A stretch of DNA of 61,492 bases from a virus: positions 1 to 61,492 of the IMG/VR virus record IMGVR_UViG_3300028786_000001; one strand, written 5' to 3'. Shown here piece after piece: positions 1,387 through 1,484 of this stretch; the first letter of the stretch is position 1; every line of letters begins with the position of its first letter. The notes under the pieces are model-generated. The model was given only the letters and a program-made list of their open reading frames with translations, did no database searches and was not told the DNA's origin. A program made the translations under genes and the position numbers.

Positions 1387-1410
1387 CCTAGTGGAAGTCA
1401 TTCCACTAGG
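1387..1410 (-). other. perfect 10-bp hairpin 5' of tRNA-Gln
   Basis: CCUAGUGGAA-UGAC-UUCCACUAGG; overlaps the 3' end of the 1409..1484 element by 2 nt. Confidence 0.5.
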
Positions 1411-1484
1411 GTCTTCGTCAAGTATCTTCTAATCGCGTACTTCAGGCATTACACTCTCGGAAGTGACTAACTTCGTCGGACCCC
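1409..1484 (-). ncRNA. candidate classical Y RNA (Ro-binding core motif)
   Basis: 5' end GGGGUCCGA and 3' end CUUGACGAAGACCC. GGG/CCC, then G-C, U-A, C-G, a bulged C, G.U and A-U reproduce the GGUCCGA/CUUGAC helix of vertebrate Y RNAs. The ~53-nt interior has a GAAGU/ACUUC hairpin. Confidence 0.5.

Follow-up and report, generated by a model that had tools for sequence, protein, structure and literature searches.

The subject of this work is a stretch of 76 nt in a phage genome, GGGGUCCGA...CUUGACGAAGACCC (1409–1484, minus strand), which lies upstream of rsr, the gene of a Ro orthologue, and which a first reading of this DNA (the earlier note) had taken for a separate element with the classical Ro60-binding helix of vertebrate Y RNAs. 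The window, meaning the whole stretch of DNA that was analysed (61,492 nt, IMG/VR record IMGVR_UViG_3300028786_000001), is a rotated copy of a circular phage contig of ~61.5 kb (ENA ERZ27251811), and its ends are redundant by ~123 nt (1–123 and 61366–61488), as expected for a circular assembly. Because of this repeat rsr (Ro60/TROVE) is split in the window, and translation and tblastn place its codons 1–300 at 900..1 and its codons 260–496 at 61488..60778, both on the minus strand; the product P0001 has 496 aa and belongs to PF05731 TROVE. Upstream of rsr and on the rsr strand follows a non-coding region of 1.75 kb (2686 to 932) with the 5'→3' order promoter-like box, Y-RNA-like units U1–U7, non-unit hairpin X1, tRNA-Trp, a 185-nt spacer, tRNA-Gln, non-unit hairpins X2 and X3, short units U8 and U9 and a terminator. 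The flagged stretch is part of the spacer between the two tRNAs, 509 nt upstream of the rsr ATG (position 900), and reads GGGGUCCGACGAAGUUAGUCACUUCCGAGAGUGUAAUGCCUGAAGUACGCGAUUAGAAGAUACUUGACGAAGACCC on the minus strand.

The two tRNAs were identified by ARAGORN and by the Rfam tRNA model as tRNA-Trp (CCA) (1563–1634, minus strand, 53.7 bits) and tRNA-Gln (UUG) (1305–1377, minus strand, 64.1 bits), and together with the letters of 1409–1484 they confirm the location that had been given for the stretch. As candidate array promoter we identified a GTTCTTTGACA box (2676–2686, minus strand) 10 nt upstream of U1. Four exact copies of this box are present in the window, and with up to one mismatch 10 copies are found against 3.0 expected, a number that 0 of 100 shuffles reached; it also stands ahead of the arrays in the related loci L082, L083, L085 and L086. 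At the other end an intrinsic terminator (932–966, minus strand) with an 11-bp stem including six G-C pairs and a following U run is located just upstream of the rsr start. Box and terminator thus enclose the flagged stretch and the array of Y-RNA-like units in the same transcription unit.

Within the stretch GGUCCGA (1476–1482, minus strand, element positions 3–9) matches the 5' strand of the vertebrate Ro60 helix letter for letter, and CUUGAC (1417–1422, minus strand, element positions 63–68) does so for its 3' strand. Between them exactly the pairs of the vertebrate Y RNAs are possible, bulged C included. The vertebrate helix consists of eight pairs GGCUGGUC, the bulged C9 and then G10·U and A11-U against UUGACUAGCC (PMC4619022, Rfam structure), and GGUCCGA is the strand contacted by Ro60, which chiefly touches the 5' strand (Chen et al. 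2014, PMC4201824). The earlier note gave the vertebrate helix correctly, and the order of the two motifs is indeed the expected one; they lie on the strand of rsr at a distance of about 500 nt from it (1417–1482). The pairing scheme drawn there, in which GGG/CCC closes the element, is also arithmetically possible.

It is nevertheless not the predicted fold. The complete spacer (1378–1562, minus strand) has a minimum free energy (MFE) of −47.0 kcal/mol with z = −2.70, and 1 of 200 shuffles was equally stable. Four hairpins are predicted on the minus strand, namely H1 (1519–1560), H2 with the sequence GCCCUUUUAAUCAGAUUAGUAAGGGG (1481–1506), an inner imperfect hairpin GUUAGU.../...AC-U-UGAC (1417–1471) whose pairs have P ~0.2 in the spacer ensemble, and H3 (1387–1410), a perfect 10-bp stem CCUAGUGGAA UGAC UUCCACUAGG that ends 9 nt before tRNA-Gln. 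H2 takes up the GGGG that had been paired with CCC, and H3 overlaps the final CC of the stretch, with CCC belonging to an extension of H3. As H2 and H3 occupy both ends, the 76-nt boundaries are a product of the pairing scheme and not of the sequence. In the spacer context the GGG/CCC closure and the classical helix both have P ~0 and forcing either of them costs ~7.6 kcal/mol.

Folded alone, the 76 nt reach an MFE of −17.8 kcal/mol (z = −1.06) and are no more stable than their shuffles. In this isolated fold GGGUC (positions 2–6) pairs with the terminal GACCC (positions 72–76) at P = 0.93–0.997, a stem that drops to P ~0 in the spacer, and the UUGAC of CUUGAC pairs with GUUAGU (positions 14–19) and not with GGUCCGA. 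Since the 3' end carries the repeat ...UUGAC-GAA-GAC-CC, GUC has two pairing partners. Each of the five classical pairs has P ≤ 1e-4, the helix as drawn in the earlier note comes to +2.0 kcal/mol, and the best fold retaining it to −8.6 vs −17.8 kcal/mol for the MFE, which is a cost of 9.2 kcal/mol for forcing the classical pairs in the 76 nt alone as compared to 7.6 kcal/mol in context. On one side of the classical register a 5-nt bulge separates it from three G-C pairs, and on the other side an 8-nt bulge follows. A discrete 76-nt element that is closed by GGG/CCC and contains the classical helix is therefore not borne out by these folds, in which the classical pairs have P ≤ 1e-4 and both parts P ~0 in the spacer.

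The proposed search with Y RNA models in Infernal was negative as well: RF00019 (Y_RNA) and RF02553 (YrlA) gave no match on the stretch at E ≤ 10, be it in 900–2800 or in the 185-nt spacer alone. The sole Rfam match in the element region, in scans at the gathering score and at E ≤ 10, was a chance match of NsiR1 to H3, and ARAGORN and Rfam found no tRNA or tRNA-like match on 1409–1484. A hidden Markov model (HMM) of the 5' half, built from 202 units of other loci, detected the nine units of the window, and the stretch was not among its matches at E ≤ 100. Likewise the covariance model R2 of the units, run with filters off, found U8 and U9 and nothing on 1409–1484 at E ≤ 10. Using blastn-short against 85 related loci we observed no counterpart of the stretch above shuffled controls, and the same was true for Smith-Waterman alignments to the four closest arrays and to the rest of its own array. 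A single-sequence covariance model (R1) revealed no homologue in 726 kb from 75 loci, and the 166 other rsr loci (1.3 Mb, both strands) contained no copy of the strict pattern GGUCCGA...CUUGAC. A scan of IMG/VR with GTCCGACGAAG-N35-60-TTGACGAAG yielded 7 matches, all of them acidic coding sequence (SDEE...IDE). As neither the 166 rsr loci nor IMG/VR contain a related sequence, the proposal gains no support from conservation or covariation. Related arrays likewise hold 250–500 nt of structured, unconserved non-unit sequence, and material of this kind is thus an ordinary component of such arrays.

Partial motifs were also followed across the clade. GUCCGA recurs upstream of rsr with 28 matches in 87 loci, which are mostly T-arm variants or coding sequence, and was rejected as a recurring site. 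One group of large phages shows ...GGUGAAAAAGUCCGA..., and because the hexamer varies among them (GUCCAG, GUUUGG, GUCCGG) this segment is not a conserved Ro-like site. GA(U/C)ACUUGACGAAG, which is common to the stretch and the spacer of L085, was dismissed too: in L085 it forms a plain 5-bp hairpin with a GACG loop and its score is not above that of shuffles. The bacterial Y RNA motif GNCGAAN0-1G (PMC4201824) occurs upstream of rsr in the clade 63 times on the rsr strand vs 103 times on the other strand (162 kb), and CGAA-type motifs were consequently rejected as markers of extra Y-like RNAs, being without enrichment on the rsr strand. In the spacer itself we found no support for any of the small open reading frames (ORFs) of 20–45 aa on both strands, and by-eye inspection for hammerhead or other ribozyme cores and for K-turn readings of CGAAGA remained without support, with no Rfam match.

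The relatives of YrlA at this locus are the array units and not the flagged stretch. The long Y-RNA-like units U1–U7 (1741–2666, minus strand; U7 is degenerate) were recognised as repeat families and show the layout stem1, UGGCUAU, stem2, UUACUUC, permuted tRNA-like domain, stem2', CUUUUUCC and stem1', while U8 (1089–1153) and U9 (1009–1080), also on the minus strand, are short units without the tRNA-like domain and match R2 with 25.9 bits (E = 6e-7) and 18.7 bits (E = 1e-4), respectively. The Rfam YrlA model matches U2–U5 weakly with 22–30 bits vs a gathering score of 69, and the 5'-half HMM from other loci finds the nine units at E = 0.01–3.5. The flagged stretch resembles YrlA in its position, less than 2 kb upstream of rsr and on the strand of that gene, and in having GACGAAG near its 5' end, but it lacks the tRNA-like T-arm/D-arm module and gives no model match.

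The units of this phage belong to a very widespread family of the clade, comprising 290 distinct units in 166 loci, with the general structure stem1 - RGYNA - 8-bp stem2 - UUACUUC - apical or tRNA-like domain - UUUCY - stem1'. Ahead of rsr, nearly all of the 80 IMG/VR loci, the 4 Logan loci and 60 of 80 GTDB genomes show the signature stem1 - (U/C)RGYNA - stem2 - UUACUUC; the genomes are those of Bacteroidota, Verrucomicrobiota and others and of their phages (loci L001–L173). A 5' AG is combined with a 3' CU in 166 of the 290 units and a 5' GG with a 3' CC in 39. At the N of RGYNA 212 units have G, 51 have A, 18 have U and 9 have C. The units of the phage studied here carry U in place of the core G (GGCUAU) and belong to a minority of 6% (18/290). 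We also observed that this position varies in concert within a phage, with U here, A in L085, G or A in L082 and UGA in L083.

The alignment behind R2 contains 54 units with 17 pairs, taken from other loci only and chosen solely by stem1 and six pairs of stem2. The core pairs that were not selected for are A-U in 45 and G-C in 8 units, G-C in 53 of 54, G·U in 39 and A-U in 7, and A-U in 46 of 54; the core also has a pyrimidine that faces U and is left unpaired. Two further pairs of stem2 are 91–93% paired with many double changes, and over the whole alignment 97% of the cells are paired at a covariation score of 0.87 vs 0.23 for shuffled data. The Y RNAs of the clade thus carry a near-continuous stem with the conserved core A-U/G-C, G-C, unpaired pyrimidine, G·U, A-U, and this core resembles the classical Ro site U-A, C-G, bulged C, G·U, A-U. 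The earlier note had set a classical core in the stretch against a different conserved loop in the array units. As the core of the clade is itself similar to the classical helix in the 54 units, this contrast was overstated; the phage's own units have U for that G.

Taken together, we favour reading the stretch as part of a spacer in which the motif is due to chance or is a relic, and not as an independent RNA gene, a judgement that we hold at about even confidence, and with moderate confidence we regard its existence as a separate element as not established. The stretch makes up the middle of a 185-nt transcribed spacer, and this spacer belongs to a single promoter-to-terminator operon that lies ahead of rsr and also holds the nine YrlA-like units and the two tRNAs. 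We infer that the spacer, folded into four local hairpins, would be freed from the precursor by the RNase P cut at the 5' end of tRNA-Gln together with the 3' maturation of tRNA-Trp, and that H3 probably influences these cleavages or protects the freed fragment as a cap at its 3' end. GGUCCGA...CUUGAC would have arisen by chance or be left over in rapidly evolving array material, without use as a bulged helix, and Rsr would presumably not bind it. Coincidence is more likely than a separate Ro-binding RNA since the stretch is not predicted to fold in this way, matches no Y RNA model and is found in no related phage. What the earlier note had observed is partly confirmed, and its interpretation partly supported.

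A strong hairpin ahead of tRNA-Gln is also seen in a related phage. The 45 nt upstream of tRNA-Gln fold at −17.5 vs −6.2 kcal/mol for shuffled sequences, and L085 has an analogous hairpin of different sequence before its tRNA-Gln (−12.8 vs −3.4 kcal/mol), so that both phages have a stable hairpin 9–13 nt before tRNA-Gln with unrelated sequences. As a side observation, stable hairpins of unrelated sequence 6–13 nt before embedded tRNAs were noted for tRNA-Gln (1387–1410; L085 3311–3332) and for tRNA-Ala (L083 ~3547–3578). Such a hairpin is not general, the mean difference over 401 phage tRNAs being just −1.7 kcal/mol.

Several points weigh against coincidence and have to be set beside this view. 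GGTCCGA-N(30–60)-CTTGAC has one match in the window (1417–1482) where 0.04 are expected, and a match occurs in 4 of 100 shuffles of the window. When the 1766-nt array (single strand) was shuffled 20,000 times with its dinucleotides preserved, the exact pattern, a motif defined in advance, was recovered 8 times (4e-4), and the statement that a chance match is unlikely is hence upheld for the exact pattern. Relaxed versions are more frequent (4e-3 to 2e-2) with 88/20,000 for GGTCCGA-N20-100-TTGAC and 390/20,000 for GTCCGA-N20-100-TTGAC, and GGTCCGA alone is present in 6.4% of the array shuffles. Furthermore, the stretch contains a duplication that the earlier note did not mention: GACGAAG, which includes CGAA and fits GNCGAAN0-1G, occurs at 1471–1477 (element positions 8–14) and at 1413–1419 (positions 66–72) on the minus strand; these two copies fall within 58 nt and are the only ones in the array. 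When folded alone, the 76 nt present a terminal stem beside an internal loop with CGACGAA, which is how the Yrl RNAs of the phage phiLo are defined, and the classical register copies the geometry of the clade's unit core with two Watson-Crick pairs, an unpaired pyrimidine, G·U and A-U. With no Rsr protein closer than 56–61% identity, the missing homologues carry little weight as evidence, and thermodynamic prediction leaves out protein binding and was made for assumed RNA ends. The 4e-4 chance figure, the doubled CGAA and the agreement of the classical register with the core geometry are the strongest points for a function, and judged from sequence they would make the stretch a predicted ligand at most. 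A motif that is rare, was defined in advance and stands in the right operon has to be weighed against a strongly disfavoured fold, negative models, the missing clade signature and the lack of recurrence in 166 loci, and we consider it rather unlikely that the stretch binds Rsr in some way.

According to the most likely alternative, which we still think improbable, the stretch would be a Y-like Rsr ligand of a third type similar to YrlB, Yrn2 or the Yrl RNAs of phiLo, which would be released by tRNA processing and would need no classical bulged helix. The GUCCGA/CGACGAA strand would be shown in an internal loop beside the GGGUC/GACCC stem, and the two GACGAAG copies might bind two Rsr rings. 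The position of the stretch on the rsr strand of the same operon, ~500 nt upstream of rsr, fits this proposal, as do the match of GACGAAG to the bacterial motif and the contacts of Ro60 mainly to the 5' strand (PMC4201824). In phiLo point mutants of CGAA cut the binding of Ro60 3–4 fold and the Yrls are defined by a 5'–3' stem flanking a CGAA-bearing bulge (PMC12135203), exactly the layout of the isolated MFE structure, and two copies of GNCGAAN0-1G within 80 nt occur in just 1.0% of the array shuffles. Moreover, a second Y RNA without a tRNA-like domain has been described in each of the characterised bacteria (PMC4201824). The stretch shares with YrlB (S. Typhimurium, M. smegmatis), Yrn2 (D. 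radiodurans) and Yrl1/Yrl2 of the Thermus phage phiLo that it is a small imperfect hairpin near rsr and, folded alone, has a CGAA internal loop beside a terminal stem, but it has no sequence relation to them, its fold is lost in the native spacer where the terminal stem has P ~0, and the role of a short, YrlB-like RNA is already filled by U8 and U9. In addition the regions upstream of rsr in the clade show no enrichment of GNCGAAN0-1G or CGAA on the rsr strand, the clade signature RGYNA...UUACUUC...UUUCY is missing from the stretch, no homologue was found and the fold is unexceptional (z = −1.06).

Quite improbable in our estimate is a decayed array unit, a non-functional relic of birth-and-death turnover, whose 5' half GGG-GUCCGAC-GAAGUUAG-UCACUUC would derive from stem1, core, stem2 and UUACUUC and whose apical hairpin would come from the D-arm-like hairpin. 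MAFFT sets the 5' half in register with the units, with CCGA under GCGA/GUGA and the same spacing of 11 nt to ACUUC, and AAGUUAGUCACUUC agrees with AAGUCAGUUACUUC of U1 at 12 of 14 positions. Degenerate units do exist in the array (U7), and related arrays hold decayed tRNA-like pieces. These similarities are not above shuffled controls, however, as 108 of 300 shuffles scored at least as high as the best local alignment, and the stretch is absent from the HMM matches at E ≤ 100 and from the R2 matches at E ≤ 10. With the UUACUUC unit family it has the operon in common, the core geometry in the classical register and the letters ACUUC, but it reads UCACUUC instead of UUACUUC and lacks the RG/CY pairs adjoining stem1 and the 8-bp stem2; its 3' half shows neither the UUUCY motif nor a partner for stem2. 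That the stretch is a diverged unit was accordingly rejected as unproven, since it fails the 5'-half HMM and R2.

The classical interpretation itself assumes that Rsr captures G4-C68, U5-A67, C6-G66, the bulged C7, G8·U65 and A9-U64, so that the locus would encode two classes of ligand, a metazoan-type site and nine units with U for the core G. Like a metazoan Y RNA (RF00019) the stretch has the identical 7-mer and 6-mer in the right order with the same potential pairs beside the gene of a Ro orthologue, and besides the low chance probability in the array it could be argued that the Rsr of the clade should accept a classical-type helix, because the geometry of the classical register equals the covarying unit core; the units of this phage also belong to the 6% minority with U. 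Unlike a metazoan Y RNA, the stretch has no continuous lower stem, as the 5-nt bulge and the three G-C pairs take its place, no adjoining upper stem and no 3' oligo-U, and it would arise by processing of a bacterial-type polycistronic precursor and not by RNA polymerase III. Nothing stacks on the helix, whereas the units and the vertebrate Y RNAs flank the site with continuous stems, and the pairs would have to be formed at the cost of 7.6–9 kcal/mol against the alternatives. One variant of this idea is that the stretch would be a high-affinity Rsr ligand in a phage whose ordinary units have lost the core G of G·U; in another GUC pairs with either of the two GAC copies and binding of Rsr could choose the register. 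That we are looking at the sole exact metazoan Ro60-binding helix among the 167 rsr loci examined, or at such a two-register switch, is a long shot. With a fold at P ≤ 1e-4, no match to the Y_RNA model and 0 further occurrences in 166 loci, we regard the classical interpretation as very doubtful.

Apart from the flagged stretch the region holds some further features. The box with the general form GTTCTTTGA(C/A)A is found in the window at 2676–2686, 3507–3517 and 9580–9590 on the minus strand and at 5772–5782 on the plus strand, and elsewhere at ~2815 in L082, at ~2995 in L083, at ~1935 and ~1965 in L085 and at ~3275 in L086. It lies 10–20 nt upstream of the first unit of each array and also ahead of other early-region genes, and a Sigma70_r2 protein is encoded near the copies (3720–4181). 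It is probably a phage-specific promoter. The tRNA-Gln is 85–87% identical to the tRNA-Gln genes of crAss-like phages, which were the sole matches when the GenBank phage collection was compared with the 1.7-kb array, and this likeness hints at a host from the Bacteroidota. The non-unit hairpins, all on the minus strand, were recognised by inspection of the sequence. X1 (1646–1730) is located upstream of tRNA-Trp and closed by AGGUAGU/ACUACCU, and X2 (1251–1302) and X3 (1163–1238) are located downstream of tRNA-Gln. The hairpin following tRNA-Gln shows a long-range closing stem and CGCUGAU in both phages (X2, 1251–1302; L085, 3432–3515) and may be a conserved non-unit element. An ORF of 180 aa with a TTG start (1993–2535, minus strand) that runs across U2–U5 is almost certainly spurious.

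Variation was also seen in the arrays of related loci. At 2373–2442 in L085 and at ~3735–3800 in L086 the tRNA-like domain is not permuted and has the order D-arm, anticodon-like arm, T-arm; ARAGORN labels the domain at 2373–2442 of L085 as tRNA-Ile(UAU), though it starts directly after GGUUACUUC. Large AT-rich phages (L010, L015–L019, L024, L027, L035, L042, L053, L055, L060 and L076) have a conserved non-coding segment of ~200 nt between two units and rsr, ~60–260 nt upstream of rsr, which reads ...AGUGAGAUGGUCACU..AUCGGCAAAGUUUCGGGAGAAUUCUUUGUAACGCUUAGGCUAAAUUUACUUGUUUGC followed by a terminator and has no Rfam match.

If Rsr did bind the stretch via the classical helix, the recognition code of animal Ro60 would work in a phage of Bacteroidota-type hosts, and with its Ro site of metazoan type the phage would provide a new variant worthy of note. 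A single operon would then supply two classes of Ro ligands and thereby a simple in vitro system of one protein and two RNAs for what Ro reads. For the spacer reading favoured here the lesson is one of caution, as even a perfect 7+6-nt motif beside the right gene is insufficient without support from fold, model and conservation. A firmer by-product of the analysis is the covarying core of the unit family, which provides a more direct tie between the Y RNAs of bacteria and phages and the animal site than the GNCGAA motif.

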